DNA from: Bryobacterales bacterium
GTDB lineage: Bacteria > Acidobacteriota > Terriglobia > Bryobacterales > UBA6623
Reading direction: 5' to 3'
Assembly: GCA_963422375.2 (NCBI GenBank)
Contig: OY729428.2
Location: forward strand, 2,336,001-2,400,000
Length of the DNA: 64,000 nucleotides
Shown here: positions 689 to 64,000 of the stretch, in pieces
Position numbering within the stretch: the stretch's first letter is position 1
How the letters are laid out: the number at the start of each line of letters is the position of its first letter
The notes under the pieces: generated by a model
Database searches by the model: none
The model's input: the letters and a program-made list of their open reading frames with translations, nothing else
What the model was told of the DNA's origin: nothing
Position numbers and translations under genes: made by a program

Positions 689-1730
689 CCTGATTACCAA
701 CGAACGTCAGCCGAGGATATGCTATACTGGAGGAGGTCGGAAACCTCTGACAGGAAAGGGGATAGCTGATGAAACGCAATCGCGTGCAATTCCAGAAGGG
801 ACTCAGCCCGGGCAAGTTCCTGCAGCGCTACGGCAGCGAGGGGCCATGCGAGCAGGCCGTCTTCAAGGCCCGCTGGCCGGACGGCTTCCGCTGCCCGGAG
901 TGCGGCTCCCGGCGGCACTGCCGCATCCGCTCCCGCAAGCTCTGGCAGTGCCATGCCTGCCACCGCCAGACTTCCCTCGTCGCCGGCACGATCTTCGCCG
1001 CCACCAAGCTGCCGCTGACCGTCTGGTTCCTGGCGCTCCACCTGCTGACGCAGGGCAAGCACGGCGTTTCGTCGCTGGAACTGGCGCGGCAGCTGGGGGT
1101 CAGCCAGAACACGGCTTGGAAGATGAAGCACAAGCTCTTGCAAGTGATGAAGGAGCGCGACGAGCGCCTGCCGCTGGCCGGCATCGTGCAGGTGGACGAC
1201 GCCTACTGGGGCGGGGAGCGGAGCGGCGGCCAGCGCGGTCGCGGCGCGGCGGGCAAGACGCCGTTCGTGGCCGCCGTGCAGGTCACCGCCGCCGGCCAGC
1301 CGGCAAGGATGCGCATGATCAGCGTGGCCAGCGTGGCGGGCTTGCGCAAGAAGACGCTGGCAGCGTGGGCCGGGCGGCACTTGCAGCCCGGCACGGAGGT
1401 GCATTCCGACGGCCCGGCCTGCTTGCGGGGCGTGGCCGGCGCCGGCTGCGAGCACGTGCCGACCGTCACCGGAGGCGGGCAGCGGAACTGCGGGGATTCC
1501 CGCTTCGTCCGGGTCAACACCATGCTGGCGAACGTCAAGCGGTCCCTGGCGGGAACCTGCCATGCGCTCGACCGCAAGCACCTGCCGCGGTACCTCGCCG
1601 AGTTCCGCTACCGCTTCAACCGCCGCTACGACCTGGAGGCTCTGGTCCCCCGCCTGCTCCACGCCTCCGTGCGCACCCCGCCCATGCCTTACCGTCTCCT
1701 AACCTTGGCTGAGTCTTGTGGGCAATCAGG
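689..1730 (+). mobile_element. IS1595-family element (CCTGATT-ended group), copy 1
   Basis: Imperfect ~28-bp terminal IRs (CCTGATTACCAACGAACGTCAGCCGAGG ... CCTTGGCTGAGTCTTGTGGGCAATCAGG) and 8-bp TSD TCGGACTT at 681-688 and 1731-1738. Confidence 0.95.
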
Positions 1731-1767
1731 TCGGACTTTGGGTTGGCTCCGTCAATGCGTCCGATGA
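769..1767 (+). CDS. IS1595-family transposase (degenerate; native stop lost, reads through the right IR)
   Basis: N-terminal Zn ribbon CPEC...CHAC, VQVDDAY, VHSDG and RYLAEFRYRFNRRY motifs. The TAA found in the other copies is CAA at 1723-1725. Confidence 0.9.
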   Translation: MKRNRVQFQKGLSPGKFLQRYGSEGPCEQAVFKARWPDGFRCPECGSRRHCRIRSRKLWQCHACHRQTSLVAGTIFAATKLPLTVWFLALHLLTQGKHGVSSLELARQLGVSQNTAWKMKHKLLQVMKERDERLPLAGIVQVDDAYWGGERSGGQRGRGAAGKTPFVAAVQVTAAGQPARMRMISVASVAGLRKKTLAAWAGRHLQPGTEVHSDGPACLRGVAGAGCEHVPTVTGGGQRNCGDSRFVRVNTMLANVKRSLAGTCHALDRKHLPRYLAEFRYRFNRRYDLEALVPRLLHASVRTPPMPYRLLTLAESCGQSGRTLGWLRQCVR

Positions 1768-2034
1768 CGGCAATAGTTAGCACGGAGTATTGCAGGCTGT
1801 CACCGGCATCCAATTCCAAGATCTCGACCCGCTTGCAAAGGTCTTCTTCTGCGGATAAGAATCTCTGATGATAGTGTCTAATCCCTTGATTAGCGCTCTA
1901 TTTGCGTTGACCAATTCGCGGTTCACTCGCTTGACATTGTCGGCACTCGTGGCACGCAATCGTTTCAGATCCCTCAACCCTCTCCTGAATTGGAGGCGGA
2001 AGTTGAGGAACTCTCTCACGTGCCCATTCCTCTT

Positions 2035-3053
2035 CCTGATTACCAACGAACGTCAGCCGAGGATATGCTATACTGAAGGAGGTCGGAAATCTCTGACAGG
2101 AAAGGGGCTAGCAGATGAAACGCAATCGCGTGCAATTCCAGCAGGGACTCAGTCTGGGCAAGTTCCTGCAGCGCTACGGCAGCGAGGGGCCATGCGAGCA
2201 GGCCGTCTTCAAGGCCCGCTGGCCGGACGGCTTCCGCTGCCCGGAGTGCGGCTCCCGCCGGCACTGCCGCATCCGCTCCCGCAAGCTCTGGCAGTGCCAT
2301 GCCTGCCACCGCCAGAGCTCCCTCGTGGCCGGCACGATCTTCGCCGCCACCAAGCTGCCGCTGACCGTCTGGTTCCTGGCGCTCCACCTGCTGACGCAGG
2401 GCAAGCACGGCGTTTCGTCGCTGGAACTGGCGCGGCAGCCGGGCGTCAGCCGGAACACGGCTTGGAAGATGAAGCACAAGCTCTTGCAAGTGATGAAGGA
2501 GCGCGACGAGCGCCTGCCGCTGGGCGGCATCGTGCAGGTGGACGACGCCTACTGGGGCGGGGAGCGGAGCGGCGGCCAGCGCGGGCGCGGCGCCGTTCGT
2601 GGCCGCCGTGCAGGTCACCGCCGCCGGCCAGCCGGCAAGGATGCGCCTGAGCAGCGTGGCGGGCTTCCGCAAGAAGACGCTGGCAGCGTGGGCCGGGCGG
2701 CACTTGCAGCCCGGCACGAAGGTGCATTCCGACGGCCCGGCCTGCTTGCGGGGCGTGGCCGACGCCGGCTGCGAGCACGTGCCGACCGTCACCGGAGGCG
2801 GGAAGCGGAGCTGCGAGGATTCCCGCTTCTTCCGGGTCAACACGATGCTGGCGAACGTCAAGCAGTCCCTGGCGGGAACCTGCCATGCGCTCGACGGCAA
2901 GCACCTGCCGCGGTACCTCGCAGAGTTCCGCTACCGCTTCAACCGCCGCTACGATCTAGAGGCGCTGGTCCCCCGCCTGCTCCACGCCTCCGTGCGCACC
3001 CCGCCCATGCCTTACCGCCTCCTAACCCTGGCTGAGTCTTGTGGGTAATCAGG
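2035..3053 (+). mobile_element. IS1595-family element, copy 2 (transposase 2115-3048 frameshifted)
   Basis: Same IRs, 8-bp TSD TTCCTCTT at 2027-2034 and 3054-3061. A 14-nt deletion near 2592 relative to copy 1 shifts the frame. Confidence 0.95.
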
Positions 3054-3743
3054 TTCCTCTTTGAATTCGGGTCGCCTCCGTCGATCCCTCGCCCTCGCGC
3101 AAAGGTCACCGGGACCTCGTCGCCGTGGCCGTCGTCACGCAGATCTCCCCGCTCGAACTGGGCGAAGAGCTCGACGGTGTCGTCCTCCGCGACGAGCGCG
3201 TGCATCCCAGCCGAGACGAGGCACCGATGGAGGGCGCGCCACTCGCGACCCGAGCACCCCATGACCACCCGCAGCAAGCCCGAGGCGCGCAGCCAGTCGC
3301 CCAGGGCGCGCCGTCCCCGGGCGGGTCCAAGCGGCGCTTGTCAATCCGGATGCCCGCCTACGGAGGGCTGCCTGGCACCCCAGTCAGGGGCAGCCCGCCT
3401 TGCCGATTCGTCATCGCACGGTCATTCCCCGGCACGGCAGCTCCCGGTCTGTCATGGCGCCGGGTGCAAGCACTGAAGCGGCATTCCGGGGTCCCCCGTG
3501 CGCACCTTGCATGGGACCCGAATTCCTGCTGCCAGCTGCGGGGCCCGGGCCTCCCTGCTAGCCACTGCCACCTGCTCGGCAGGGCGCGAGTCATCGGCGC
3601 GGGACGAGCCTACCCTGCGCCGTGTCGAGCACGCGGGCGGACGCAAGCCTCAGGACCGTGCAGCGAAGGCGCGCGCGGTCGCCGACGCGAATCACATCCG
3701 GCTCATCGGAACGCGCGGCCGCCGACCCAGTCCCGCCGACGCG

Positions 3744-6700
3744 TCAGAACGAATACTTCAACGAGAATTGGCCGATCCTCCCCGCTCCGGCCCCGGTGAT
3801 GCGGCCGAGGCGGCGGTCGGTGGCGCTGCCCCGCCGAGGCGTCCCGAAGTTCGGGTGGTTGGGCAGGTTGAAGAAGTCCACGCGGAAGTCTAGGGAATGT
3901 CCTTCCCGGATCGGGATCCGCTTGCGCAGCGAGATGTCGAGATTGATTACACCGGGGCCCTGGAGGTTGTTCCGGCCCGAATTACCGTACGAGCCGACCG
4001 GGGCGAGCGCGAAGGCATCCTTGTTGAACCACTCGAAGATCTTCTCGCCGCGCGACCGGCCGGAAGGCAGCCTCGGGTCGCCCACGATCTGGGCGCGGTC
4101 ATGCCGGACCGCGGTCAGGGAGCGGTCGCGCCCGGCATCGACATGGAACGGACGGCCCTCCTGCAGGGTGATGATCGAGCCCAGCTCCCAGCCGCCGAGC
4201 ACGCTCCGAGCCACGCCGCTCTTGGGTCCCGGAATCTCGAACAGGAACGAGCTGACCATGCGCTGCTGGATGTCGAAGTCGCCCCGGCCGCGCTCGGCGG
4301 CGCGGTTGTTGGGGTCCTGCAGGCCGTTCTGCGTCACAGTCGCGAATGCGGAACTGGTGAGGACCTCGTCGATCGCGCGCCCGTAGGTGTACGCGACCTG
4401 GAAGGTCAGTCCCCGGCTGAAGCGGCGCTGCACCTGGACCTGGAGGCTGTTGTACAACGAGGACGCGCCGCTGTTGAGCTGGCCGATGCTGCCGAAGCCT
4501 TGGTGGATGCGCCGCTGGTCGGTGTTCCCGGCGGTCGACTCGGGGCCGTACACGGCCCGGTTCTGCTCCCGGTTGTAGGTCAAGTTCCGGCCCACGTTCC
4601 CGACGTAGGCGACTTCGACCATGAGGTTGTCCGACACCTGCTGCTGCACGGTCAGGTTGTAGGTCTGCATGTACGGATTGCGCAATCCCGGCGCGAAGCC
4701 CTTGGGAATGGTGATCGGGTAGACGAAATTCGGATCGCTCGGGTCGAACACGAAGGGAAAGGGATTGAGGTGCCCCCTGAACGGGGCCGCGAGCGCGAAG
4801 GGCTGGTTGATGTCTACCGAGGCGCCGAACGGCTGCAGAGCCTGCACGCCGCCGGCCATCTCGGCGGTCAGGGGGTCGTAGGAGACGCCGTAGCTTGTGC
4901 GAATCGAAGTCCGCCCGTCACCAAAGACATCCCACGCGACGCCGAACCGCGGGGCGACGTTGACCAGGCCGTCCCGGTAGGGGAAGCCCGCGTCCGACAG
5001 CCAGAGCAAGCCCGCCGGAGCGTCCGGAATGAACGAGGACTGCGCCCCTGGCACTAAGGCCGTCTGCTGGTTCTGCTGCTCTTCCCAGCGCGGGAAGAAC
5101 TCGTTGCGCACGCCCAGCGTCATCGTGACGTTGCGCCGGATCTTGAAGCTGTCCTGGAAGAACAGTCCTGTCTGGATATAGCGGTGATCGAACTCGATGG
5201 GCGAGGCCTGCCGGATTCGCCGCGCCTTGCCCGTCACGAAGTCGGCCATCGGCAGGCCGGTCCGGTTGCCCGTGAACTGCCACTCGGTCCCGGTGGCGCG
5301 GTTGTCGCGGTAGAGGAACTGGTTGCGCTGCGTGTCCACGCCCCATTTCATGTTGTGGTTGCCCCGCAGCCAGCTCATGTTCCATGACACGGCGTAGTTC
5401 TGTGAGAGGCGCTGGCGGTGCCGCCCCGGTCCCAGTCGGAAGCGGTTCGTGATCTGGACCAAGGGCCGGCTCTTGACCACGCCTCCGGCGTGGTTGAAGT
5501 CGGTCGCGCCGAAATCCGCTAGGTCGTCGTCGAAGGGAATGCTCTCTTGGTAGTTGAAGCGCGTGTAGGTCAGCCGAACGGTGCTGGCCAAGGTGGGGCC
5601 GAACAGGTGCGTGTCCTCGAGCGTGTAGGTCTGCATCCGGTTGAACCGAGGGTTCGGGCCGTAGTTGATGAAGTCCGCGTTGCGCAGCGGGTCGGCGCCT
5701 TGGTTGTGGTCGTAGAAGAGCCGGAAGTTGACCTTGTTGCGGTCGGTCAGGTTGTGATCCATTCGCGCAAGGTACTGGTTGTCGTCGCTCGGCTGGCTGA
5801 CCTGCGTGACGAAGCTCCCGTCCGGCCGGTCGGGCAGAGGCACCCATCCGTCCAGCATGTGCTTCGCGACAGGATCGAGCAGGTTCGCGGGCACCATGTT
5901 GTTAGGGAACGGATCGCCGGTATCCGCATTCTTGATGGCGTCCAAGCCGCCGAAGTCGCCGCCCCGTTCCGCCGTGGTCGCGGGGAAGGCGGTCCGGAGG
6001 CGGTCCTCGCGAATCCGCTGCCCTTGGTAGGTGAACTGGAAGAAGGAGCGGTCCTTGCTGAGCGGACCGCCCACGGTGCCGCCGAACTGGTTGAAGCGCA
6101 GCTTGGGCACCGTGCGGGAAAAGAAGTTGCGGGCGTCAAGTGCGTCGTTGCGCAGGAAGTGCCAGACGCTGCCGTGGAACTCGTTCGTCCCGGACCGCGT
6201 GACGGCGCTGATCACGCTGAACCCGCGCCCGTGCTCGGCGGTGACGCCGGTGGTCGAGACGCGGAACTCCTGGACTGCGTCCGGAGGCGGCAGGATGAGC
6301 CCCTGGCCGCGGTGGAAGTAGCTCATGGATCCGCCGTCGAGCAGGTAGTTCACCGAGAAGTGCCGACCGCCGTTGATGTTCATGTTCTGCTGGCCGAACG
6401 AAGGCCGGATCGTGGTGCTCACGCGCTGGACGCCGGGCACCAGCCGGACCAGGTCCAGCGGATTGCGGCCGTTCAGGGGGAGATACCCGGATGCGACGGT
6501 CGTCGACAGTCATGCCGATCTGCGTCGAGCGCGTGTCCACCTGCGGCGCCTGGCTGGTGATGGTGACTGTTTCCGTCACCTGGCCCAGTTCCAGCACGAA
6601 GTCGACGCGCAAGCTCTGCAGGGCCGAGAGGGCGATTTTCGGACGCTCCGTGGTGCGGAAGCCCTCCGACTGGACCGAGGCCCGGTAACTACCGACCGGG

Positions 6701-6900
6701 AGTTGCGTGGCGAGGTAGTCGCCGACCGCTCCCGACTCCACCGCCTTCACCTCGCCGGTGTTCTCGTTGGTAAAGGTGATCTGCACGCCAGGGACCGCGG
6801 CGCCGGTCGGATCGGTCACGGTCCCAGCGATTTCGCCGGTCGTGGATTGGCTCATCGCCGTCACGGCAGCGAGGAGGAACGCGACAGCAAGTCTTCTCAT
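3744..6900 (-). CDS. TonB-dependent receptor with N-terminal carboxypeptidase-regulatory-like domain (Oar-like); one frameshift near 6485
   Basis: Signal peptide, GEIAGTVTDPTGAAVPG, ELGQVTETVTIT, then LPLNGRNPLDL in a shifted frame, TRSGTNEFHGS, and a C-terminal QFSLKYSF beta-barrel signature. Confidence 0.9.
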
Positions 6901-18337: not shown

Positions 18338-18464
18338 ATCTATGACGTTGTCCCCGAAACACCGACGGACACTGCTGTTGCTATTTGAGCGACATCCACT
18401 GTCTAGACCAGAGCATGGGCGCTACTCACGCGCATCAGTCTGCCCCCTGCCCTGCCGATATCTA

Positions 18465-18719
18465 GTGCTTGTGACAAAACCCCTGAATTCTGGCCCGATC
18501 AGCATTTCATACTACATCCTGAAGTCGGATGGATCTCCAAACACAACATATAGGGCCCAAGGTCGGAAATTGCTCAGACGCCAATCGCGAAGATTTCGAC
18601 GCTCTATTCAGAATCGCCAGGGTTTCGGATTAGTCGTAGCATTCCAGCGAAATCTTCGCCTTGAGAGATTGGATCTAACGCCTTTGTTGTCAAGGGGATA
18701 CGAGTTTTGTCACGGGCAC
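18465..18719. mobile_element. Putative MITE or internally deleted IS (255 bp)
   Basis: Terminal IRs GTGCTTGTGACAAAAC (18465-18480) and GTTTTGTCACGGGCAC (18704-18719), 14/16 match. Flanks TATCTA / GATCTA. Lower GC than host genes. Confidence 0.6.
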
Positions 18720-18722
18720 GAT

Positions 18723-19352
18723 CTAGTCAATTAGGTTCAGGCCGCCGTCTTCAAGTGTCACGGGTCGCTGCCAGTACCCGAACTGGGGAGTCCAGTCGTC
18801 CCCTCCGTGGCCCGCTAGAGCGAGGAAACTCCAAGCCGAGCAGAACATGTCGCCGGGACCGAACACCACGGCATTCTTCCGCAGGATGGTACCGTCGCTC
18901 TTCTCGTAGAGCACGGCCCCGGGCATATTGTCCTGGCCGGACATGGTGGTCTGCTCGCGGATGTAGCTGCCGGCCTGATGCGAAGCAAGCCGGAACCGCC
19001 AGCCGCGAGCGTTGGCGAACCGTCGCTGGACTTCGGGCGGATCCTTCGAAAGCAGCACGACCGCCATGGCCGACTCCAAGTGATGCAGGAAGCCGTTGAT
19101 GCCGTCGGCCCACAACGTACAGTACCTGCACGCCTGCCCCATGTTGTGTATCGCTAGTAGCTTGTCCTTTCCGGCGAAGAGGTCGGCGAGATGCGTTTCG
19201 CCTTCCAGCGTTTGCAATGGGTAGTTCGGCACCGGGGTGCCCACTGCGGTCCGTCTCAGCTTGTTGAGCTGCTCCGTCAGTTCCGCGACTCGGCGCTCGA
19301 GGTCCGTGATGGTGGACTCGGAATCGGTAGGGCTTGTAGTAGGCTCTGGCAC
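18723..19352 (-). CDS. DUF899-family thioredoxin-like protein
   Basis: N-terminal coiled coil, LADLFAGKDKL, CRYCTLWADG, RGWRF. Confidence 0.8.
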   Translation of the reverse strand: MPEPTTSPTDSESTITDLERRVAELTEQLNKLRRTAVGTPVPNYPLQTLEGETHLADLFAGKDKLLAIHNMGQACRYCTLWADGINGFLHHLESAMAVVLLSKDPPEVQRRFANARGWRFRLASHQAGSYIREQTTMSGQDNMPGAVLYEKSDGTILRKNAVVFGPGDMFCSAWSFLALAGHGGDDWTPQFGYWQRPVTLEDGGLNLID

Positions 19353-20495: not shown

Positions 20496-20875
20496 CGAAA
20501 GAGTCCTGTCGCATCCGGCTCCTTTTCCGACTCTCGGTGGGAAATGCACTCCTCGCACGCTCCACGGTGTCGATGGCGGATATGGCACGGTAATCGATTC
20601 AGCCAAGCCACTCGCATTTGCACTATCGAGTGATGGCACTTCGCTGACGTTACAGGCCTGCTTCCCATCTGGGTCCGCGGAAAGGCAGCATCTCGCGTAA
20701 ACTGCATGAAGGAATCCTAGAAGTATGGCCCGCCGAGTATTCTTTAGCTTCGCCCATTCAACTCCGAAGTGCGACACGCGCCGAGCCACAAGATGGCAGG
20801 GAGGGGAGAGGGGGGGCAGCGAGCGGTGGTGTGGCGGCAGTAGGCTGGTAGGTGCTGGAAGGAGCAGGGAGGCGG

Positions 20876-21919
20876 ATGCGGAAGAGCTACACGCACGTGA
20901 CGCAGGAGGAGCGCTGCCGGAGCGAGACGCTGCGGGCGGCGGGCTGGGCGGGCTGGGGAGCGGACAGGATCGCCGGGCAGCCGGGCCGCAAGCGGGCCAC
21001 GATCTACCGGGAAGTGGGCCGCAACGGCCGACCGGCGGAGGGCGAGCGCGCGGCGAGCTACAGCTTGGGGAGCGCGCGGGAGCGCGCGGAGCGGCGGCGG
21101 CGCGCGGCGTCGTGCCGGCCGCGCCAGCTGACGTCGGCGCTGCGGGCGCGGAGCGAGGACTGCCTGCGGCAGGACTGGAGCCCGGAGCAGGAGCCCGGAG
21201 CAGGAGCCCGGAGCAGGAGCCCGGAGCAGGTCGCGGCGCGGCTGCAGCGGGAAGGGGCGCTGGAGATCAGCCCTGAACGGATCTACCAGCTGGTGCGCGC
21301 GGACCGGCGGCAGGGGGGCCGGCTGTACCGGCACCCGAGGCAGGGCGGCCGCAAGCGCGTCCGGCGGGTCGGCCGGACGGCGGGCCGCGGCCTGATCCCG
21401 GGGCGCGCGGACATCGCGGAGCGCCCGGCGGAGGCGCGAGCGCAGGCGCGCGTCGGCGACCGGGAGGCCGACACCGTGATCGGCGGGCAGCGCCGCGGGG
21501 CGCCGGTGACGCTGGTGGACCGGTTCTCTAAGTACCTGCTAGTGCAGCCGGTTAGCCGGCGCACGGCGCGGCTGGTCGGGGCGGCGATGACGGCCATGCT
21601 CGCAGGCAGCGGGGCCGTGACGCGCACGATCACGGCCGACAACGGCAAGGAGTTCGCGGGGCGCCGGGAGGTGGCGCAGCGGCTGGGGGCGGGCTTCTAC
21701 TGCGCGCGGCTCTGCCACTCCTGGGAGCGCGGGCTGAACGAGCATGCCAACGGGCTGCCGCGGCAGTACTGCCCGCAGGGGACGGACCTGCGGCGGGTGG
21801 ACCCGGCCCGGGTGCGGCAGGCGCGGGACCGCCTGAACCGGCGTCCGCGGAAGGTGCCGGGCGGGCGCACGCCGGAGGAAGTCTTCCCGGCGGAGCGCGA
21901 GCGGGTGCCGCGGGGCTGA
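20876..21919 (+). CDS. IS30-family transposase (open frame but degenerate)
   Basis: [49 protein letters not shown]. Confidence 0.9.
21177..21228 (+). repeat. 13-bp tandem repeat GGAGCCCGGAGCA x4 inside the IS30 transposase
   Basis: Four exact units here, versus two units at 58304-58329 in the second IS30 copy. Confidence 0.95.
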
Positions 21920-22678
21920 GGCAGGGCTGGCAGCCCGCCGCCCCGGACAGGGGCGCGGGGGAGCTGCGCCCGGACAGGCGCGGATTCGACCCTCCGGGCC
22001 TTGCTGCGGTCGCTCCGCTCCCTGCGCAAGGCCCGGAAGGTCCCCGTTCCGGAAACGGGGCACGCATGCCCGCCTGCCCGGGACGCGGCCCCCCGCTGCG
22101 GCCCGGCAGCGGCTTGTCCGGCGCCGCTGGATCTGCTACTGTGGTCCTAGTATCCCAGCCCACCGCCCCTTACCCGCGTGTCGCACTTCGGAGTTGAATG
22201 GGCGCTTTGATTACGTACGGGACGTTTCTCGTGCTATGATCGTGCGGAATAGCTGGGTGACACAGGGTCGAGAGGATGTGGGTTTTGTCGATGCAGCTGA
22301 GATCCAGAACGTGGAGAAGTCTGGCAGCCGTGCGATCCGCCATTGGATCAATGAGCAAATGATGGGAACATCCGTCACTGTAGTCTTGGTGGGATCGCAT
22401 ACATGTCGCAGCCGTTGGGTCCGGTATGAAATCGAGTTGAGCGAAGAGCGATGTAATGGCTTGCTCGGAATCGACATTAGCAAAATCAAGGATTTTGCCG
22501 GGAATACGAGCTCCTGTTGTCGCATGATGCCAATCGGCCATCCGTTCTACCGATGGAATCGTGATCACGGGTACCAGAGTCTCGGAAAGTAGATTGAATG
22601 GGCAGCACGGTCAGTCGGGCGCTAGGGACTTCAGGTCAAGTGCCAGATCATCTTGATTCGGAATCGCGAAGCATTGCA

Positions 22679-24737
22679 GTGTTCGCGACACCTGACAGAG
22701 GGGAGAGACGCGACATATATGACGACATGATCATTGATCAATCCGAGTTTGAAGAGGAAGAATTGGCCGTGCATCCACGGTACTCAATTACGACTTATGG
22801 AGTGGATTTATCCGTAGATAGTGTGGCACGGCGCCTAGCGAGAGGAGACATTGTCCTGCCGATTTTCCAGCGGGGCTTCGTATGGAGCCTCACACAGGCA
22901 TCAAGATTTGTCGAATCCTTGTTGCTAGGACTTCCCGTACCGGGAGTCTTCTTGTGCAATCAACCTGCAACTCAAAGACTGATGATTGTCGACGGAAATC
23001 AGCGGCTTCAGACGATATCAAGTTTCTATATCGGAAAGAATCCGTAATCAGCCGTTGGCATTGGCTAGCGTGGAATTGTCACTACAAGGATTGACATATC
23101 AGACCTTGGATGAGGATGATTGACGTGCCCTAGATCGTTCGTTTCTGCACACAACCGTGTTTCATCAGGAACAAACAACAAGTGATAAGAGTAGAATTTT
23201 TCAAGTGTTTGAGCGCCTAAATATGACTGAAATTCCGCTTTCCACGCAAGAAATTCGAGCATGTCTATACCGAGGGTCTGTCAACGATCTTCTAAAATAT
23301 TCCTGATTACCAACGAACGTCAGCCGAGGATATGCTATACTGAAGGAGGTCGGAAATCCCTGATAGGAAAGGGGATAGCAGCTGAAACGCAATCGCGTGC
23401 AATGCCAGAAGGGACTCAGCCCGGGCAAGTTCCTGCAGCGCTACGGCAGCGAGGGGCCATGCGAGCAGGCCGTCTTCAAGGCCCGCTGGCCGGACGGCTT
23501 CCGCTGCCCGGAGTGCGGCTCCCGGCGGCACTGCCGCATCCGCTCCCGCAAGCTCCGGCAGTGCCATGCCTGCCACCGCCAGACCTCCCTGGTCGCCGGC
23601 ACGATCTTCGCCGCCACCAAGCTGCCGCTGACCGTCCGGTTCCTGGCTATGCACCTGCTGACGCAGGGCCAGCACGGCGTTTCGTCGCTGGAACTGGCGC
23701 GGCAGCCGGGCGTGAGCCGGAACACGGCTTGGAAGATGAAGCACAAGCTCTTGCAAGTGATGAAGGAGCGCGACGAGCGCCTGCCGCCGGGCGGCATCGT
23801 GCAGGTGGACGACGCCTGCTGGGGCCTGCTGGGGCGGGGAGCGGAGCGGCGGCAAGCGCGGGCGCGGCGGGCAAGACGCCGTTCGTCGCCGCCGTGCAGG
23901 TCACCGCCGACGGCAAGCCGGCAAGGATGCGCATGAGCAGCGTGGCCAGCGTGGCGGGCTTCCGCAAGAAGACGCTGGCAGCGTGGGCCGGGCGGCACTT
24001 GCAGCCCGGCACGGAGGTGCATTCCGACGGCCCGGCCTGCTTGCAGGGCGTGGCCGGCGCCGGCTGCGAGCACGTGCCGACCGTCACCGCAGGCGGGCAG
24101 CGGAGCTGCGGGGATTCCCGCTTCGTCCGGGTCAACGTCCGGGTCAACACGATGCTGGCGCACGTCAAGCGGTCCCTGGCGGGAACCTGCCATGCGCTCG
24201 ACGGCAAGCACCTGCCGCGCTACCTCGCCGAGTTCCGCTACCGCTGCAACCGCCGCTACGACCTGCAGGCGCTGGTCCCCCGCCTGCTCCACGCCTCCGT
24301 GCGCACCCCGCCCAGGCCTTACCGCCTCCTAACCTTGGCTGAGTCTTGTGGGTAATCAGGTAAAAGAATACTCTAGACCTCTTCGACACTTCTTGAACTG
24401 GTATATGGAATCGAACGCCAACGCAAGCGGAGAATGAGTAGAAGAGCATCGCATGAAGTTTTATCATGCTGTAGAAATCGCTTCTCGTTACTTGAGGAGG
24501 GATGGGTTTTGTCAAGGTTCAAGGTTGAATTCTGCGATCACTGATGCAATGTTAGTGGGCCTGATGTGTCGTATCGATCATGGGAGCATCAAGCATCCAA
24601 GTCGACTGCGAGGTGTTGCCATTGATCTTCGAGACTCCTCAGAATTTGCTAGCGTAGTCCATCGTAACACAACAAATATCAACTCTGTTCAGAGTAGGAT
24701 TCAGCAAGCTTGCGAAGCCTTCTGGAGGGTTGCATGA
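22679..24737 (+). pseudogene. DUF262 (GmrSD N-terminal/ParB-like) protein, disrupted
   Basis: FQRGFVW, VESLLLGLPVPG, VDGNQRL, then after a frameshift (~23040) and a stop, FQVFERLN...QEIR. IS1595 inserted; C-terminal part resumes at 24361. Low GC. Confidence 0.85.
23302..24360 (+). mobile_element. IS1595-family element, copy 3 (start codon ATG->CTG, frameshifted, no TSD)
   Basis: Both IRs present; flanks AAAATATT and TAAAAGAA do not match. Confidence 0.95.
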
Positions 24738-25962: not shown

Positions 25963-26048
25963 CGATCGGGACCGGGCGGTCGACCGGTGTTCTGCATGCC
26001 GAGCACCGAACGGCTCCGCGACACAGCGCGGAATCCAGGAGTTGACCC

Positions 26049-35698: not shown

Positions 35699-35788
35699 GG
35701 AGGGGTCCCAAAGGCGTGCTTGATTCGACGCCCGCTGAATGAATCCGTCCGACCAAGCCGCCAACCCTCGCGCCCGAGGTCGCTGCGG

Positions 35789-38919: not shown

Positions 38920-38922
38920 GAA

Positions 38923-42955: not shown

Positions 42956-43303
42956 GGCTCAGTACTAGCTTGAGTCTAGGGGACGGGACGACGCAGCGTC
43001 GAACCGCTGCCGACGCGCCTGCCGGAAGTCGGCCGAGCTGTCGATGGAGAGGTTAACGCGAATCCCCCTACACCTCCCCGGCCATCCAAGCGGGCGGTAC
43101 GGCCAGTTCCCTGCGCCGCGGCTCGCCTCGTTGTCCCAAGGGGCGACCGCTCCCGCACCGCCACGTCGCGCCGCGCTGCGAGTTGCATGTGCAGCCAAGA
43201 AGGGCAGCCACCGTTTGATGCGGCAATCCGGGCTTCCGCGACGTCGTGCGACAAAGCACCGCGAGAGGAAGCCGGGAGGCTCGGGTATACTCGGCTCAAG
43301 GGC

Positions 43304-44020
43304 ATGGACGAAACGGAAATCGTCGCGGCCATACAGGCCGCCATCAGGCGGAAGGGCACCAACCCAAGCAGGCTCGCCAAGGAGAACGGCTGGTCGGTGA
43401 ACGCCGTCCGCTACATCCTGGAGGGACGCCGGCCCAGCAGCAGCCGCCTAGCAGAGGTCTGCAAGGCACTGGGCCTCGAGTTTTACGTGGGCCCGCCCCG
43501 CATGCCCGGAGGGAGCCAGCTCAACGCCGAGCGGCTCGCGGACGAGCTAGAACGCCTCGCCGCGGAGGCCCGTCGACTTGCCCGGGCATCCCGGCCGCGA
43601 GTAACCGAAATCGACCAAGGCTTGTACGCTTCAGCACCGCTCTACAGCGTGCTTGCGGCCGCCGGCGAGGGTCTGACCGTCGATACGGAGGAGGTCAAGG
43701 GATACCTCGGGTTCAACAGGACCTGGCTCCGGAGCCAGCGGCTTGCAGCTGACAAGCTGGCCGTGATCGAGGTGCGTGGCGATTCGATGGAGCCGACTCT
43801 GTACGGCGGAGACACGGTGCTCCTCGACATGCAGGCGCATCCGTTGCGCGACCGCGAGATCTACACGCTCCGGCGCGAAAACGATCTCCTGGTCAAGCGC
43901 CTCCGTCGCAAGGGATCCGAATGGCGTATTGTCAGCGACAACCCCGCCTACTCGGAAGAAACACTGGGGCCTGAGCACGCCGTTGTCGGCAAGGTGGTCT
44001 GGCTCGGACGAGTGCTCTGA
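43304..44020 (+). CDS. HTH + S24 peptidase (CI/LexA-like) repressor
   Basis: N-terminal HTH, AAAG cleavage-site motif, VRGDSMEP and LVKRL catalytic Ser/Lys, VVGKVVW. Confidence 0.88.
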   Translation: MDETEIVAAIQAAIRRKGTNPSRLAKENGWSVNAVRYILEGRRPSSSRLAEVCKALGLEFYVGPPRMPGGSQLNAERLADELERLAAEARRLARASRPRVTEIDQGLYASAPLYSVLAAAGEGLTVDTEEVKGYLGFNRTWLRSQRLAADKLAVIEVRGDSMEPTLYGGDTVLLDMQAHPLRDREIYTLRRENDLLVKRLRRKGSEWRIVSDNPAYSEETLGPEHAVVGKVVWLGRVL

Positions 44021-44028
44021 ACGCGACG

Positions 44029-48268: not shown

Positions 48269-49243
48269 CCTGATTACCAACGAACTTCAGCCGAGGATAT
48301 GCTATACTGGAGGAGGTCGGAAATCTCTGACAGGAAAGGGGCTAGCAGATGAAACGCAATCGCGTGCAATTCCAGAAGGGACTCAGCCTGGGCAAGTTCC
48401 TGCAGCGCTACGGCAGCGAGGGGCCATGCGAGCAGGCCGTCTTCAAGGCCCGCTGGCCGGACGGCTTCCGCTGCCCGGAGTGCGGCTCCCGACGGCACTG
48501 CCGCATCCCCTCCCGCAAGCTCTGGCAGCGCAATACCGCAATGCCTGCCACCGCCGGACCGCCCTCGTCGCCGGCACGATCTTGGCCGCCACCCAGCTGC
48601 CGCTGACCGTCCGGTTGCTGGCGATCCATCTGCTGACGCAGGGCCAGCACGGCGTTTCGTCGCTGGAACTGGCGCGGCAGCTGGGCGTGAGCCGGAACAC
48701 GGCTTGGAAGGTGCAGCACAAGCTCCTGCTAGTGCTGAAGGAGCGCGGGCGCGGCGCGGCGGGCAAGACGCTGTTCGTCGTCGCCGTGCAGGTCACCGCC
48801 GCCGGCCAGCCGGCAAGGATGCGCCTGAGCAGCGTGGCGGGCTTGCGCCAGAAGACGCTGGCAGCGTGGGCCGGGCGGCACTTGCAGCCCGGCACGGAGG
48901 TGCATTCCGACGGCCCGGCCTGCTTCCGGGGCGTGGCCGGCGCCGGCTGCGAGCACGTGCCGACCGTCACCGCAGGCGGGAAGCGGAGCTGCGGGGATTC
49001 CCGCTTCGTCCGGGTCAACGTCCGGGTCAACACGATGCTGGCGCACGTCAAGCAGTCCCTGGCGGGAACCTGCCATGCGCTCGACGGCAAGCACCTGCCG
49101 CGGTACCTCGCCGAGTTCCGCTACCGCTTCAACCGCCGCTACGACCTGGAGGCGCTGGTCCCCCGCCTGCTCCACGCCTCCGTGCGCACCCCGCCCATGC
49201 CTTACCGCCTCCTAACCTTGGCTGAGTCTTGTGGGTAATCAGG
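48269..49243 (+). mobile_element. IS1595-family element, copy 4 (frameshifted, catalytic VDD segment deleted, no TSD)
   Basis: Both IRs present; flanks TAATTTTT and ATGTCTTT differ. The segment encoding DERLP...SGGQR is missing near 48746. Confidence 0.95.
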
Positions 49244-50435: not shown

Positions 50436-50751
50436 TCAACCGTCCGCTTCGCGGGAGGGTGCATTGTCAGCGTGACGTTCGTCAGCCGGATGCTCCACGC
50501 TGTCCGGCACCACCTCGTGCATGACCACCGGCGGCAGGTCTCGCCAGCGTTCGCCATCGAACCGCGCGAACAGCGTCCCGTCGCGGATTCCGACGACCGT
50601 CCCGCGGTACCCTTCACGCGGAGACCCCCACGTTATCCGAACCCGCGAGCCAACGGCGATTCGTCCTGAATCGGCCACCCTGTGAGCGGTGTCGGGCTTG
50701 CTCCATCAGGACTTTACGGGCTGACTCGAAGATGGCCCGGATCTTGCTCAT
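50436..50751 (-). pseudogene. Small hypothetical gene coupled (ATGA) to the MmeI-like gene, probably frameshifted
   Basis: MSKIRAIFESARKVLMEQA starts in the RM stop codon; an overlapping frame gives IAVGSRVRITW...GTVVGI...ARFDG (SH3/KOW-like). Confidence 0.35.
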
Positions 50752-53597: not shown

Positions 53598-53997
53598 GGG
53601 GCATTCAGCGTAGCTCGTGATGCCGCCACCTGCTGCAACGGGGCCGGACGGCACATGCTTGCCGTGGCCACCGCCGGCATCGTCGGGCCAGATAGCGTGA
53701 GCCTGTGCTCGCCTCGCTCCCACCCTGCTGCGCGGGGCTGACGCCCTTGACGCCGGCTCCGCGCACGCTCGTCCGGATTGGCCCTTAGACGACGATGCCT
53801 GCTCAGACGCTCCCGTCCGAAGGGCTGACCGGACGGTTTTCGGCGCCGAAGAGAGGTCGTACCGGATGCCTGTGCGGTACGGTTTGCGCTCGACATCGGC
53901 AGCGAGGCGCTTGCCGAGCTGGATCTCCTTCTCGAGGCTGTACAGGTTGACGCCCTTGCCGACGCCGCGATCACCGATCCTCGATACGTCTTCCTTA

Positions 53998-55311
53998 GGG
54001 CTTTGATCGATATTAAGTTTCCAACTTCATCATGGATGTAGTTCGTAGTTCCAATCATCGTGGAACTCGTTCCGATGGAGCGACAGGGCGTCCATCTCCG
54101 CCTTCGTTACTGCCTCACCGGTCGGGTACTTTCTATTGTCAAGTTCGGCTTTGACCCGAAGGCCGGCGGCTGTGCGCGTACCGCCGATCAAGTCGACAAC
54201 GGTCTCAAATGTACGCAGTGGCTTGCCTCGCCAATTCTGCGTGACGTGGCAGAACAGGCGGCGCTCAATCTTATGCCATGGACTGGTCCCCGGCGGGAAG
54301 CGGCTGACGTGGATGCGAAGACATGTCCGGTCAGCGAACTTCTGCAGCCGATGCTTCCAGGCGCGAGAGCGATACCCGTTGCTACCGCCCGCATCGGCAG
54401 CGATGAACAGCTCGCCAGCCTCGGGGTAGCGGCGCTTCCCCGTCTCGTTCCACCACCGTCGCAGCGAGGCCGCGGCAAACGCGGGCGTGTCGTGATCACG
54501 TCCGACATGCACCCAGGCTTCGTTGCGCCCCAGGTCATGGATGCCATACGGCATCGCTTTGCCGGACGAGTCCTTGGGAAAATCATGCACCAGTGATTTC
54601 CCGGGGCCCCCCTTCGGTTGCCATTCCCGCCCGCCGTTCTTGAATTCACCCACCAGTTCCTTCTTCTTGGTGTCGACCGAGACCACTGGCTGACGACGTT
54701 GCAGAAAATCATCCGCCTTCGTATGGATGTGCTCGAACTGCGCGTCCCGGTCGGGGCGGGTTGTCCCTTCGAGACTCTTGCGCACCGATTGCAGGCTGTA
54801 GCCAAGCTCATGCAGTCAACGGCTCGCCGTCGTCGAACTCACCTGCCAACCCGCCTGCGACAACGCCGCGGCGAGCTTCGCCCGACTCTTGCATGTCCAG
54901 CGCAACGGCGACTGCAACGGCGACTCCGGGTCACCGCGAGTCAACGGGTCAACCAGCTTCTCCAGCGCTTGCTCGATGCCCGGCCGCGACTGCTCGATGC
55001 CGGGCCGCCCGGCCCCCGGGCGGCGTATCCGACCGCGTTCAACACTGCCGGATTCCAGCTCTCGACGCCCCGCGCGGATGGCGCGGACGGTCGGGCGCGA
55101 CAACCCAGTCGCGTCCGATACCAGCGCATCCCCCCCATACCCGATGGCACGCGACTCCGTCGCCGCCCATAGCCGACGCCCGCGCTCGTCGAGAAACGCT
55201 TCCACCGCCGCGTACTGCTCAACAATTGTCGCTTCGAGTTCAAGATTGCGTCTCATCGGATGATGAGAACACAAAACTCAGAACATGGAAATCTAATTCC
55301 CGACAACGTCC
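53998..55311 (-). mobile_element. ISAzo13-family element (transposase ~55256-54030, in-frame TGA at 54816-54818)
   Basis: LDERGRRLWAA, GYSLQ, SVDTKKKE, DAGGSNG, PPGTS, WNYEL. Imperfect 25-bp IRs; 3-bp TSD TTA at 53995-53997 and 55312-55314. Confidence 0.92.
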
Positions 55312-55443
55312 TTAGCGTTCTTGGGCTCCCGCTTGGCGGCTTCCTCCGGCAGGCGCACCTTGCTTGGGTCGATGCCGACCGTCAGGATTGGTACCGCTGC
55401 AAGCGCCGTGAGTGCCTTGGTGCGCATTCGATGCATGTCGTGC

Positions 55444-57001
55444 GAGCCTTTTGCAAAAATCCCGCGCTAATAGCATTATCATTTAGTTAGTCTATTAAGT
55501 ATTCGATATAATAAATGAAATAGAACTGTAGTAAATGTAGTTTTAATGGCTTGTCTGCGTTTTGAGTTTCCTGGCAATCCCTTGCCCTCCGTGCTATTAT
55601 TGTAATGAAATCCTAGTAAGCAGCTGGCAGAATTCAACGAATATGTCCTTGATAGAAACCGTATCCGCGTACTGGTTCACGTTCCAGCAGGGGCTGTTCC
55701 CCTGGCTCGAGCAGGAACTCGGCCCCCTCGGCGAGCGCTGCCGCAGCTTCGTTCAAGCGGTGGAACTGGCGCAGGTCGAGGACTGCCTGCCCGTCGGGCA
55801 GGGCGGCCGCGGCCGCCCCCTCGCAAGCCGCGCCGCCATGGCGCGCGCCTGCATCGCCAAGGCCGTCTTCGACCAGCCCGCTACGCGCTCGCCGGTCGAG
55901 CGCCTGCAGACCGATCGCACCCTGCGCCGACTGTGCGGCCGGGACCTGGCCGGGGCCGTGCCCGGCGAGGCAACCTTCTCGCGCGCCTGCGCCGAGTTCG
56001 CCGCCGGCGAACTGCCCGGACGCTTGCACCAGGCGCTGCTCGCGCGGACGCTCGACGGCCGCTTGGCAGGGCACGTCTCCCGCGACTCGACCGCCATCGA
56101 GGGCCGCGAGCGGCCCGCCGCGAAGCCCGCGCCGGAACCGGAGCCGAAACGCAAGCGCGGGCGCCCTCGCAAGGGCGAGCAGCGGCCGCCCGCTCCGCGC
56201 CGACTGGCGCGGCAGCCCGACATGAATCTCGAAGCAATGCTGCACGACCTGCCGCAGGGCTGCGATACCGGCACCAAGCGCAACGCCAAGGGCCGTACCG
56301 TCAGCTGGCGCGGCTACAAGCTGCCTATCGACGCGATCGACGGCGGGATCCCGGTCAGCTGCCTGCTCACCGCGGCTTCGCTGCACGACAGCCAGGCCGC
56401 GATCCCGCTGGCGACACGGACCGCGGGCCGCGTCGACAACCTGTACGACCGGATGGACAGCGCGCGCGACGCGGCCGGGATCCGGGCCTTCAGCGAGCGG
56501 CTCGGGCACGTGCCGCTCATTGATGTCAACCCGCGCGGCCGGACGGAGCTGCAGGCGGATCTGGCACGGGAGGCCCCGGCGCTGCGCAGCGCCGGGCGGG
56601 CGGATCCCGCCAAGCTGCGCTACCGCGAGCGCTCGACGGTGGAGCGTGTCAACGGCCGCCTGAAGGACGATTGCGGCGGGCGCCACGTGCGCGTCCGCGG
56701 CCACGGCAAGGTGGCCACGGCAAGGTGCTGTGCCACCTCCTGTTCGGCGTGCTCGCGCTGACGGTCGAGCAGCTCCTGCGCCTGGCGCTCCGAGAGCCCG
56801 GGCCGCCGGGACGGCCGGGAAGAGCGCCCGCCCGCCGGGCCGGGCCGGGAGAGCTGCGCCTGCACGGGGCCGCTCCTCGCAGGAGCGCCCCGAAGCGGAG
56901 CAAGCCCAGCTGAAGGGGGTCTTTTTCGGCGAGAATAACAGCCCGGAAACTAGTCGTTCATGGGGCGGTCAGCCCTCTTTTCTGAATTTTGCAAAAGGCT
57001 C
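55444..57001 (+). mobile_element. IS5/IS1182-like element (DUF772 + DDE transposase from 55643, frameshifted at ~56713)
   Basis: IRs GAGCCTTTTGCAAAA and TTTTGCAAAAGGCTC; 4-bp TSD GTGC at 55440-55443 and 57002-57005; SRDSTAIE, GYKL, HDSQ, YRERSTVERVN. Confidence 0.9.
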
Positions 57002-57167: not shown

Positions 57168-57592
57168 GTGATCGGTCGTTTACTAGCGGCGGTTCTCTGT
57201 GCCGCAGCGGTCCTTTACGGAAGCACCGCTGCGGACGACTTGCGCGCGATCAAGGGGTTGGAATTGGATCCCGACAACTGTTACCGCGTCCGGGATGCCT
57301 TCTTGGAGCGAGAGGAAGTCAAGCTCTACTTCACGGATGGGCATATCGTGTTCGCCAAGCCTGTCCTAGGCCGAACCCTAGCCGCGCTGTTCGTCGCAAC
57401 GGGGCCGACCGATGTTGGGGAGGTGCTGTTGATTCCACCGAGCCCAGCCGAACGCCAGTCCGTCGCGAGCTTTCTCGGCGAGACGATCATCAACGAGAAG
57501 TTTCGGAACGCGATGATGTTCTTCACCGATGACACCGCGACAGCGCTCGCCGCGTCGATCCGCGACGCGGCGGAGTCGCGGCTCGATCCCGA
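57168..57592 (+). pseudogene. N-terminal fragment of a secreted protein (resembles the N-terminus of acidobacterial M1 aminopeptidases), truncated at IS30
   Basis: Signal peptide, LDPDNCYRVRD...LYFTDG...GEVLLIPP...ERQS...FTDDT; the frame runs into IS30 sequence at 57593. Confidence 0.6.
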
Positions 57593-58755
57593 GGCGGGCT
57601 GCCAGCCCTGCCTCAGCCCCGCGGCACCCGCTCCCGCGCCGCCAGGAAGACTTCCTCCGGCGTGCGCCCGCCCGGCACCTTCCGCGGACGCCGGTTCAGG
57701 CGGTCCCGCGCCTGCCGCACCCGGGCCGGGTCCACCCGCCGCAGGTCCGTCCCCTGCGGGAAGTACTGCCGCGGCAGCCCGTTGGCATGCTCGTTCAGCC
57801 CGCGCTCCCAGGAGTGGCAGGGCCGCGCGCAGTAGAAGCCCGCCCCCAGCCGCTGCGCCACCTCCCGGCGCCCCGCGAACTCCTTGCCGTTGTCGGCCGT
57901 GATCGTGCGCGTCACGGCCCCGCTGCCTGCGAGCATGGCCGTCATCGCCGCCCCGACCAGCCGCGCCGTGCGCCGGCTAACCGGCTGCACTAGCAGGTAC
58001 TTAGAGAACCGGTCCACCAGCGTCACCAGCGCCCCGCGGCGCTGCCCGCCGATCACGGTGTCGGCCTCCCGCTCGCCGCCGCGCGCCTTCGCTCGCGCCT
58101 CCGCCGGGCGCTCCGCGATGTCCGCGCGCCCCGGGATCAGGCCGCGGCCCGCCGTCCGGCCGACCCGCCGCACGCGCTTGCGGCCGCCCTGCCTCAGGTG
58201 CCGGTACAGCCGGCCCCCCTGCCGCCGCTCCGCGCGCACCAGCTGGTAGATCCGTTCAGGGCTGATCTCCAGCGCCCCTTCCCGCTTCAGCCGCGCCGCG
58301 ACCTGCTCCGGGCTCCTGCTCCGGGCTCCAGTCCTGCCGCAGGCAGTCCTCGCTCCGCGCCCGCAGCGCCGACGTCAGCTGGCGCGGCCGGCACGACGCC
58401 GCGCGCCGCCGCCGCTCCGCGCGCTCCCGCGCGCTCCCCAAGCTGTAGCTCGCCGCGCGCTCGCCCTCCGCCGGTCGGCCGTTGCGGCTCACTTCCCGGT
58501 AGATCGTGGCCCGGTTGCGGCCCGGCTGCCCGGCGATCCTGTCCGCTCCCCAGCCCGCCCAGCCCGCCGCCCGCAGCGTCTCGATCCGGCAGCGCTCCTC
58601 CTGCGTCACGTGCGTGTAGCTCTTCCGCATCCGCCTCCCTGCTCCTTCCAGCACCTACCAGCCTACTGCCGCCACACCACCGCTCGCTGCCCCCCCTCTC
58701 CCCTCCCTGCCATCTTGTGGCTCGGCGCGTGTCGCACTTCGGAGTTGAATGGGCG
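57593..58755 (-). mobile_element. IS30-family element, copy 2 (right end missing, frameshifted)
   Basis: Left IR at 58726-58755 identical to copy 1. Homology to copy 1 stops 20 nt past the transposase stop. Two units of the 13-bp repeat shift the frame. Confidence 0.93.
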
Positions 58756-62390: not shown

Positions 62391-62931
62391 GATTCTTGCC
62401 ATTGCGGCAGCGTGTTCGGTTGTCGCTGCCGAGCCTTCTCCCATCGTCAAGCCACCGGACGGGTCGTGGATCCCCGGCGACACCATCGAGATCATCGCCA
62501 AGGCAGGGGAGGGCCGTCTCCTGCTTGACGGAAGGGCGCTCCCCACGGAGCAGCCATTTCCCGGGGTGCTTCGCGCCGAGGTGCAGGTGCAGGCAGGAAC
62601 CCATACGGTGAGGCTGGAAACGTCCGACGGCTCCCGGCAAGTGAGCTTCCACTCGGGCCCGGCGCCCGAAGGGCGGCACGGGGCGGCGTACCGAGACCAC
62701 CCGCCCGTCCAAGTCGACTGCAGCCACTGCCACAGCGTGAGCCGGCGGGGCCGGTTCCGCTTCAGTGGAGGGTGCCAGGCCTGCCATGCCGAGGACCTCT
62801 TCATCCGGACGCACAGCCACCAGAGCCACGAGCTGGCCAGCTGCGGCATGTGCCACGACGCGCACGGATCTAGCGCGGCCAAGCTGCTCGTCATGCCCCG
62901 GGAGCGGGCGTGCAAGCAGTGCCACAATTGA
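62359..62931 (+). CDS. Secreted tetraheme c-type cytochrome
   Basis: Signal peptide, then CSHCH, CQACH, CGMCHDAH and CKQCH. Confidence 0.85.
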   Translation: MPGPSAASISRILAIAAACSVVAAEPSPIVKPPDGSWIPGDTIEIIAKAGEGRLLLDGRALPTEQPFPGVLRAEVQVQAGTHTVRLETSDGSRQVSFHSGPAPEGRHGAAYRDHPPVQVDCSHCHSVSRRGRFRFSGGCQACHAEDLFIRTHSHQSHELASCGMCHDAHGSSAAKLLVMPRERACKQCHN

Positions 62932-63060
62932 GCCCTGCCGGCGAACTCCAAGCACATCCTGCACACGCCGACGCGTTGTATCGAGGGGCCGGTCCTGCAG
63001 GAGGCTGCCCTGCCCGGGCAGGCAAACCGGGCGTTCCGCTTCCAATTGAGCCTTTGCAAA

Positions 63061-64000
63061 GGGAATTATATATCTGAGTGCCGAGGGAATCAAGTCGGCA
63101 AATTATCAAGCCATAATAAGATTTCATATTTCTTCCGACTTTCCGTTGACATTCTGTGGTGTTTCTTGGTAGAATAGTTCCAGCAGGGGATGCCGTAAAT
63201 GAAGAAATCAGGTCCCGGAAAGTGGTTCCGTAAAGGCATCACATTGATCGAAGTAATCGCCATGTTCCCCGATGACGAATCCGCGGAAAAATGGTTCGCC
63301 TCCATACGCTGGCCGGACGGTCCCGCGTGCCCCCACTGCCGCGGCTCCAGCGTGCAGTCCGACGCGGCCCACCCTTCGATGCCGTACCGTTGCCGCGGCT
63401 GCGGCAAGCGCTTTTCCGTGCGCACCGGCAGCGTGATGGCCGACACCAAGCTCGGCTACCGCACCTGGGCTGTCGCCCTGTTCCTGCTGACCACCGGCAT
63501 CAAGGGCGTCTCGAGTATGAAGCTGCACCGCGACCCGGGCATCAGCCGGAAGTCGGCCCGGCACCTGGCGCACCGCATCCGCGCGTGCCGGGAGCGGGAT
63601 CGGGGCCTGTTCGCCGGCCCGGTGGAGGTGGACGAGACCTGCGTCGGCGGCAAGAAGCGCAACCAGCACGAGAGCAAGAAGGCCCGCGCCGGGCGCGGGC
63701 CCGTCGGCAAGACCCCGGTGGCGGGGGCGCGGGACCGCGCCACGAACGCAGTGGCCGCGCGGCCGCTGCCGGGCACCGCCGAGGGCGACCTGCAGGGCTT
63801 CGCGCGCGCCCGCGTCGCGCCGGGGGCGCAGGTCCGCTCCGACGAGGCGGCGGCCTGCGCCGGCATGGCGGAGTTCGCGCACGAAGCCGTCAGGCACTCC
63901 GGCGCTCCGGCGGCGAGTACGTGCGCGGGGCAGCGCATACGAACGGCATCGAATCGTTTTGGCCCCTGTTCAAGCGCGGCCTGTACGGCACCTATCACCG
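63061..64000 (+). mobile_element. Second IS1595-family element (ISNwi1-like end GGGAATTAT), partial; transposase from 63199, frameshifted at ~63905
   Basis: RWPDGPACPHC...CRGC, KGVSSMKLHRD, VEVDET, HTNGIESFW..FKRG..GTYH; runs off the window. Confidence 0.9.

Follow-up and report, generated by a model that had tools for sequence, protein, structure and literature searches.

Bacterial mutation is generally AT-biased (PMC2936535), and why many bacteria are GC-rich despite this is an old question, for which GC-biased gene conversion (gBGC) and selection for GC, its standing alternative, are still debated (PMC4450053, PMC13548323); a niche study of insertion sequences (ISs) likewise terms the cause of GC-biased recombination debated (PMC13548323). 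In the bacterial gBGC described by Lassalle et al. 2015 (PMC4450053), recombination is linked to a G/C fixation bias that can override protein constraint, mismatch repair is proposed as the source of the bias, and the evidence comes from single-copy core genes, where GC correlates with allelic recombination when strains are compared. Here, we analyse the decayed IS families of a Bryobacterales bacterium that are represented in a 64,000-nucleotide stretch of contig OY729428.2 (positions 2,336,001 to 2,400,000; G000:C2:2336001-2400000), referred to as the window. A/T->G/C changes have spread through these families; the phenomenon is real and most likely reflects GC-biased ectopic gene conversion, a variant of known gBGC. 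Unlike in the system of Lassalle et al., conversion would be ectopic and within one genome, the derived-allele spectrum is countable, and inactivating changes appear to be driven through IS families.

Paralogous conversion in Mycobacterium tuberculosis also involves short intragenomic tracts (median 101 bp), becomes rarer with divergence and is independent of distance; it differs in that the accessible part of the report describes neither a GC association nor a directional GC drive, 'GC-biased' occurring there solely in the title of a reference (PMC13061034). Repeat-restricted conversion is known from plastid inverted repeats, with raised GC (PMC4524490, PMC5010901), and from non-allelic conversion between human long terminal repeats (PMC4921805), systems that are organellar or eukaryotic, with two copies or meiosis, as opposed to about 100 dispersed bacterial ISs. 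The IS fossil record of Wolbachia likewise retains many old decayed copies, with no GC-ward spreading reported in the available text (PMC3205602). The base composition of transposable elements has been treated in eukaryotes (PMC9099904), and mutation bias has been reviewed (PMC10710837, PMC12606429). No report of GC-driven sweeps through bacterial IS families was found in a literature search whose scope excluded most subscription journals and supplements.

Direction and frequency of the changes

The genome (G000) comprises 6.0 Mb in 3 contigs, with 67% GC and a single 16S gene; repeats of depth at least 10 make up about 9% of it, and the IS families of the window have 9-97 full copies each across the genome. 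With W standing for A/T and S for G/C, changes are denoted W->S (A/T->G/C) or S->W (the reverse). They were polarised by codons conserved in outside transposases, with 12 outgroups and 122 codons for IS1595 family A, and with 96 outgroups, 135 codons and 83 of 92 copies for a second IS1595 family, f1 (f1 and famG are one family, overlapping in 90/92). Per-copy loads per 1000 opportunities in family A and f1, respectively, were 45 and 50 for A>G, 34 and 6.7 for A>C, 9.5 and 2.5 for C>G, 2.0 and 2.0 for C>T, 3.3 and 0.6 for C>A, and 0.2 and 0.2 for A>T. Both strands are affected alike (A>C 226, T>G 150, A>G 139, T>C 196). Among conserved codons, those for W, L, Y, F, K and Q (one-letter amino acid code) are lost in up to 98% of copies, and one conserved Trp codon has become Arg in 98% of family A copies.

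The direction of change depends on how many copies carry it. At the conserved codons of the two IS1595 families, singletons are balanced (W->S 36/454 vs S->W 51/683, p=0.82), whereas alleles present in at least four copies are W->S in 43/454 cases and S->W in 1/683 (p=6e-17), the single S->W case turning into W->S under the closest outgroup. C<->G changes are intermediate, with 12 singletons and 8 alleles in at least four copies among 395 opportunities, and A<->T is nearly nil (0/233 shared by at least four); the first-pass annotation had accounted for neither. The shared-to-singleton ratios are thus ordered S->W (1/51), C<->G (8/12), W->S (43/36), the spectrum expected of gBGC. Synonymous W->S alleles have spread as well (18/47, with A/T taken as ancestral), and their spread together with the loss of conserved codons fits a process that acts regardless of fitness or coding effect. 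These data demonstrate that the asymmetry is mostly a fixation (spreading) bias. The first-pass annotation had proposed a strong A/T->G/C mutation bias in the decaying elements: the load is real when polarised by outgroups, and its attribution to mutation fails on the balanced singletons.

When the four family A copies of the window are compared with a plain majority consensus, no lean is seen (copy 1: 7 W->S, 12 S->W), because the majority is itself derived at many sites; over the whole family, the rates per 1000 sites polarised in this way are 24.5 for W->S and 10.8 for S->W. This polarisation masks the effect and was discarded. Taking any A/T allele found in at least six copies as ancestral is circular as to direction, and the headline counts were therefore restricted to outgroup-conserved codons. 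The elements of the window are as follows.

689..1731, plus strand: IS1595 family A copy 1; NF033547 above cut-off; 97 full copies genome-wide; stop codon lost at 1723
2035..3054, plus strand: IS1595 family A copy 2
18459..18726, no strand given: non-coding multicopy element of about 260 bp, like a miniature inverted-repeat transposable element; 60-66 copies; tract signal weak or absent
20751..22204, plus strand: IS30-family element; NF033563 above cut-off; 21 copies
23302..24361, plus strand: IS1595 family A copy 3; start codon CTG
48269..49243, plus strand: IS1595 family A copy 4, with an internal deletion
53997..55315, minus strand: ISAzo13-family element; 9 copies; lesions at outgroup-conserved codons: 10 W->S, 2 C>T, 1 C>G
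55444..57001, plus strand: IS5/IS1182-like element; 20 copies; under NCBIfam cut-offs
57588..58755, no strand given: another IS30-family copy, shorter than the first; each of the 21 IS30 copies overlaps family F
63061..64000, continuing beyond the window end, minus strand: second IS1595 family (f1/G, called an ISNwi1-like element in the first-pass annotation); 83-92 full copies

The individual changes cited in that annotation were found in the letters. The stop change TAA->CAA is at position 1723, IS1595 copy 3 starts with CTG, and the peptide variants DPGISRKSAR, ETC, LPRQYC, GDRE and SRF all occur in window copies. A/T-bearing forms persist elsewhere in the genome for DLGISQKSAW (9 copies), ETY and LLRQYF (3 copies), and the GDWE form occurs in 0/21 IS30 copies. 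Logan contigs from two studies carry alternative alleles at hot sites, including window positions 912, 968, 1178, 1205, 1223 and 1239. In 19.9 kb of unique DNA (window 24500-44400), the long contigs listed for three runs from the two studies show zero differences, suggesting a near-clonal population; unique DNA contains essentially no between-sample single-nucleotide polymorphisms, so no mutation spectrum could be obtained from it. A sequencing or assembly artefact is an unlikely source of the variants.

Outside these elements, the window contains a TonB-dependent-receptor-like gene broken into two overlapping frames (3744-6900), a GmrSD N-terminal fragment (22598-23047) and an MmeI-like restriction-modification open reading frame (ORF) of 991 aa (50748-53723). 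Elsewhere in the genome, an integrase/ParB/exonuclease region of 77% GC is present in triplicate (G000 C1:1824037-1844793, C2:1308656-1350163 and the C3 ends; L142), with three equal-scoring C5-methyltransferase copies nearby. Mean GC is 71.6% at repeat depth 2-4 vs 67.1% in unique DNA.

Mosaic copies and probable short-tract transfer

Among 63 common sites of family A, 1930/1953 site pairs show all four gametes, and r2 is 0.13 below 10 bp and 0.016 past 300 bp. Since common sites are nearly unlinked, descent from mutated masters is out, which leaves recurrent mutation or conversion. Copies that share a rare allele agree at adjacent common sites in excess (family A, 0.73 vs 0.56 at 4-10 bp and 0.66 vs 0.57 at 11-25 bp; f1, 0.73-0.78 vs 0.54-0.55 up to 50 bp, fading by 200 bp). 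With the closest 10% of copy pairs left out, this flank match exceeds all 100 permutations at 4-25 bp in family A (z 3.3-3.9) and at 4-200 bp in f1 (z 3.2-6.7). When the comparison was limited to rare alleles of the S->W type and to sites 11-40 bp off, 1/200 permutations reached the observed value in family A and 0/200 in f1; in this test, neither family showed an excess past 200 bp. In the two largest families, flank sharing thus decays over 40-200 bp, as in short-tract non-reciprocal transfer.

Sites 1-5 bp apart form nested or mutually exclusive haplotypes, with some pairs 2 bp apart being independent. Recent sister copies have 9/11 of their differences on the same hot sites, which indicates that the process is recent. 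Tandem duplications of 9-14 bp with little microhomology, at family A consensus positions ~420-435, 511-519, 630-639 and 808-820, are common to 7-19 otherwise unlinked family A copies. Flank sharing, haplotypes, shared duplications and the hot sites of sister copies are marks of short-tract ectopic conversion. Family A has 89 insertions of at least 8 bp vs 47 deletions of at least 5 bp, the opposite of the usual bacterial deletion bias and a possible case of insertion-biased conversion. Among copies with both ends, 22/70 in family A and 21/62 in f1 lack a matching 8-bp target-site duplication, consistent with past rearrangement between copies; cross-matching of the orphan duplications gave 5 vs 7.1 expected, and 0, leaving simple reciprocal exchange unsupported.

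We consider it probable that the decayed IS families undergo short-tract ectopic gene conversion with heteroduplexes repaired towards G:C. GC-biased gene conversion between repeats, one of the causes offered in the first-pass annotation, is supported by the frequency-dependent asymmetry, the short shared tracts and, as described below, clean target-site duplications and an escaped copy. Dispersed copies would swap short tracts ectopically, with mismatches likely resolved to G:C. A new W->S allele arising in any copy would be copied to its sisters and a new S->W allele erased, so that nonsynonymous W->S alleles (amino acid changes W->R, L->P, Q->R, K->Q, Y->C, F->C) would sweep the family and leave it dead.

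The bias may come from mismatch-by-mismatch short-patch repair, probably of the MutY/Vsr type. An A/C difference would give an A:G mispair, and an A/G difference T:G or A:C; MutY would take A out of A:G (and A:C), and Vsr or a T:G glycosylase would take T out of T:G. Vsr acts on T:G mismatches, and T:G and A:C are substrates of Vsr and MutY; very-short-patch repair of this type would suit CTGG>CCGG. There is a likeness to the mutT, mutS/mutL and MutY literature, in which MutY excises A from G:A mispairs (PMC12606429) and this removal gives the A>C direction (PMC12606429, PMC10710837); the difference is that mutator loss is not seen here and that the enzymes would act on recombination heteroduplexes. 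From single-mismatch patch repair, the GC drive, context preferences and independence at 2 bp would follow. It is a tentative proposal that such repair makes ectopic recombination a family-wide GC ratchet, a defence resembling fungal repeat-induced point mutation (RIP) that needs no dedicated gene. Fungal RIP is repeat-restricted and inactivates transposons by new C>T changes; here, existing alleles would be copied, in the opposite direction. The Vsr gene (G000 C2:2578614, L039) has no methyltransferase match nearby, and the genome contains 18 C5-methyltransferase matches.

Shared alleles are enriched at CCAG>CCGG, TAC>TGC, SAW>SCW and WCC>WGC (p 4e-4 to 4e-14), and singletons are without context enrichment, SAW excepted; the tests were redone without famG, and f19 and f21 still overlap in 25/44. 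Two other rules were tried: local template switching or drift to the genome's k-mer composition was rejected (area under the curve, AUC, 0.54-0.65), and duplex stability predicted weakly (AUC 0.57-0.62). In simulations, a W->S class above 10% frequency appeared only with bias, and not with zero or unbiased conversion. The best match, from single unreplicated runs, was a bias of 0.4-0.7 with 10-15 conversion rounds per site, so that, by this crude simulation, G/C would win roughly 70-85% of mismatches.

Single-locus controls and competing explanations

Each insertion brings its own control, as the 8-bp target-site duplication is a single locus of the same age. Duplications were callable in families A and f1, and not in six other families tried, giving 89 usable pairs (76 perfect, 7 single-mismatch, 6 two-mismatch) after exclusion of 43 non-matching pairs. 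The 89 pairs show 16 W/S mismatches vs 27.7 expected from a context-matched, minority-only (and so conservative) IS load (P=0.012); when the two-mismatch pairs are dropped, 7 mismatches remain, one in each of 7 pairs beside 76 perfect ones, vs 23.7 expected (P=6e-5). A second control lies within a family: the ISAzo13 copy at C1:1285402-1286705 retains 154/158 conserved residues; its lesions are 3 S->W and no W->S, whereas each of the other 8 copies has 8-16 W->S lesions. At most variable sites this copy carries A/T, and its GC is 59.7% vs 62-63%. It may have been spared the GC drive of its family or be a more recent arrival. The IS630 family (5 copies, more diverged) has mixed lesions.

Broken single-copy genes were matched to genes of the congener G005, using 2.4 of its 5.5 Mb. 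The starting set of 51 pseudogene candidates was mostly false; 12 were retained, then 20 after adding DNA. Across these 20 orthologues (6557 codons, taken irrespective of age), radical A>G and A>C changes amount to 7.1 and 7.3 per 1000; in 842 intact genes the figures are 3.9 and 4.5, which leaves an excess of only ~3 per 1000, far under the IS loads. Only one IS-interrupted gene had a G005 orthologue, and it was uninformative. Five genes compared with 9-29 congeners show ordinary S->W changes of G000 at conserved third positions. As to confinement to recombining DNA, the load is low in target-site duplications, the escaped copy and the 20 orthologues, and high in ten relic segments (below). 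In another congener, G042 (C1, L245-L260), 150 IS1595 candidates were seen; 10 of the best-scoring among them show many shared A/C differences and too few lesions for polarising. Two of its five-copy families, at 95-99% identity, have 13 and 11 shared A/C differences vs 13 and 4 shared transitions, and could be an early stage of the same process.

Several observations weigh against GC-biased ectopic conversion. In ten single-copy relic segments that carry stops (932 codons, set mostly against paralogues; PhoX, an integrase, and DUF4143 and DUF1501 paralogues are among the homologues), radical changes number 12/231 for A>G and 10/371 for A>C vs 4/225 for C>T, with controls of 6.9, 6.9 and 10.2 per 1000, a lean IS-like in strength. 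A/C accounts for 8/19 target-site mismatches, so that background A>C may be raised, and pooled singletons lean slightly GC-ward (W->S 311/2600 vs S->W 595/6631). Intact genes have a GC at third codon positions of 0.867 vs 0.827 in G005, and Q>R, H>R, F>C and W>R are about twofold asymmetric against this one outgroup, unpolarised. Within the families, position 844 of family A is a possible S->W sweep to 87%, the tract test is non-significant in two smaller families (61/200 permutations in f19, 99/200 in f26), and copy similarity hardly varies with physical distance. The MutY/Vsr scheme leaves directional C<->G changes and spreading duplications unexplained, simulated families have too few singletons and too few shared C<->G alleles, and context predicts hot sites with an AUC of at most 0.69-0.77 (upper bounds), which a hot-spot model predicts equally. 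A milder genome-wide GC lean, for example from allelic gBGC, may lie under the strong ectopic effect.

A mutator may once have acted GC-ward while the IS families were beginning to expand, with unbiased conversion shuffling the alleles afterwards and singletons reflecting a restored normal spectrum. Such a past episode would account for the asymmetry between old shared and new private changes and for the GC lean of older relics and of intact genes vs G005, and it fits the tract signal. We hold it unlikely. It requires A>G, A>C and C>G to rise without C>T or one-base indels, and we know of no single mutator that yields these three without C>T; the unrelated families (two IS1595, IS30, ISAzo13) are alike, sister copies still diverge at hot sites, and the target-site duplications are clean. 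Loss of mutT is specific for AT->CG, and loss of mutS or mutL raises transitions and frameshifts (PMC12606429). Here, A>G exceeds A>C, family A indels are mostly 9-27 bp, and one-base indels number 14 in 97 copies (7 insertions, 7 deletions). In G000, recA, mutS, mutL (878 aa for MutS, 629 aa for MutL), vsr, nth, family-4 uracil-DNA glycosylase and two Fpg-domain ORFs score above family cut-offs; a MutY-like ORF (280 vs 286.5 bits) and a MutT-like Nudix ORF (76 vs 97.9 bits, orthology unproven) are intact and score below theirs, and a genome search gave no match for NucS. The suggestion that loss of mutT or mutS/mutL supplied the mutations thus finds no backing in the gene content.

A further rival is a context-dependent, GC-ward mutation process acting lineage-wide, in which the same hot sites would be hit independently in all copies and in neutral DNA. 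The context enrichment of shared alleles, the independence of some sites 2 bp apart and the GC-ward lean of the relics speak for it. However, identical 5-mers vary from 0 to 77% derived (GCAAG), rare alleles have shared flanks of 11-200 bp that independent mutation cannot produce, and the load is missing from target-site duplications, the escaped ISAzo13 copy and the 20 broken orthologues. The lineage-wide mutator put forward in the first-pass annotation is disfavoured, the repair genes being intact ORFs and one-base indels rare; the ten relic segments keep it in consideration, and we rate it, too, as unlikely, if anything slightly more so.

More doubtful still is a dedicated repeat-recognising mutagenic system, either RIP-like or templated by an error-prone reverse transcriptase, that silences repeats. 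The load appears confined to repeats and destroys conserved residues, and the genome has two reverse transcriptase ORFs (G000 C1:1225019 and C2:2846352). However, singletons in the repeats are unbiased, and the same derived base recurs per site and moves with its flanks, which points to copying and not to new writing. Mutagenesis by diversity-generating retroelements is specific for adenine and for one strand, is templated by a repeat and includes A->T; here, the two strands change alike and A>T is nearly nil. The C:G->T:A signature of RIP is likewise absent, C>T alleles being confined to 1-3 copies at conserved codons. The more speculative idea of repeat-targeted mutagenesis that silences ISs is not needed as a dedicated system.

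Host-level selection for converted, higher-GC or transposase-inactivating alleles would shift the frequency spectrum likewise, and appears very improbable: S->W changes at the same conserved codons are equally inactivating, yet never spread, synonymous W->S alleles do spread, and the population looks near-clonal. Least credible is systematic sequencing or assembly error within repeats, for although run X2 is a possible source of the assembly and the library types of the contig runs are unrecorded, identical alternative alleles occur in the contigs of a second study (X6), unique DNA is letter-identical between runs, and the indels are 9-27 bp events, not homopolymer errors.

Consequences for high-copy elements

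Read as GC-biased ectopic conversion, the roughly 100 dead paralogues of a family serve as a population within one genome, in which mutation input (singletons, target-site duplications) can be separated from fixation bias (shared alleles), with tract lengths and contexts. Bacterial gBGC would thereby become directly countable in a single genome. As a caution, such a family's majority consensus differs from the active sequence that the copies descend from. The process would also offer a route for the joint extinction of high-copy ISs. If the ratchet holds, an inactivating W->S allele would be driven into all copies, faster with higher copy number, and newly arriving active copies of the same family would be poisoned too; old IS families in complete genomes would then provide a general in-genome assay of the strength of bacterial gBGC and of its sequence rules.

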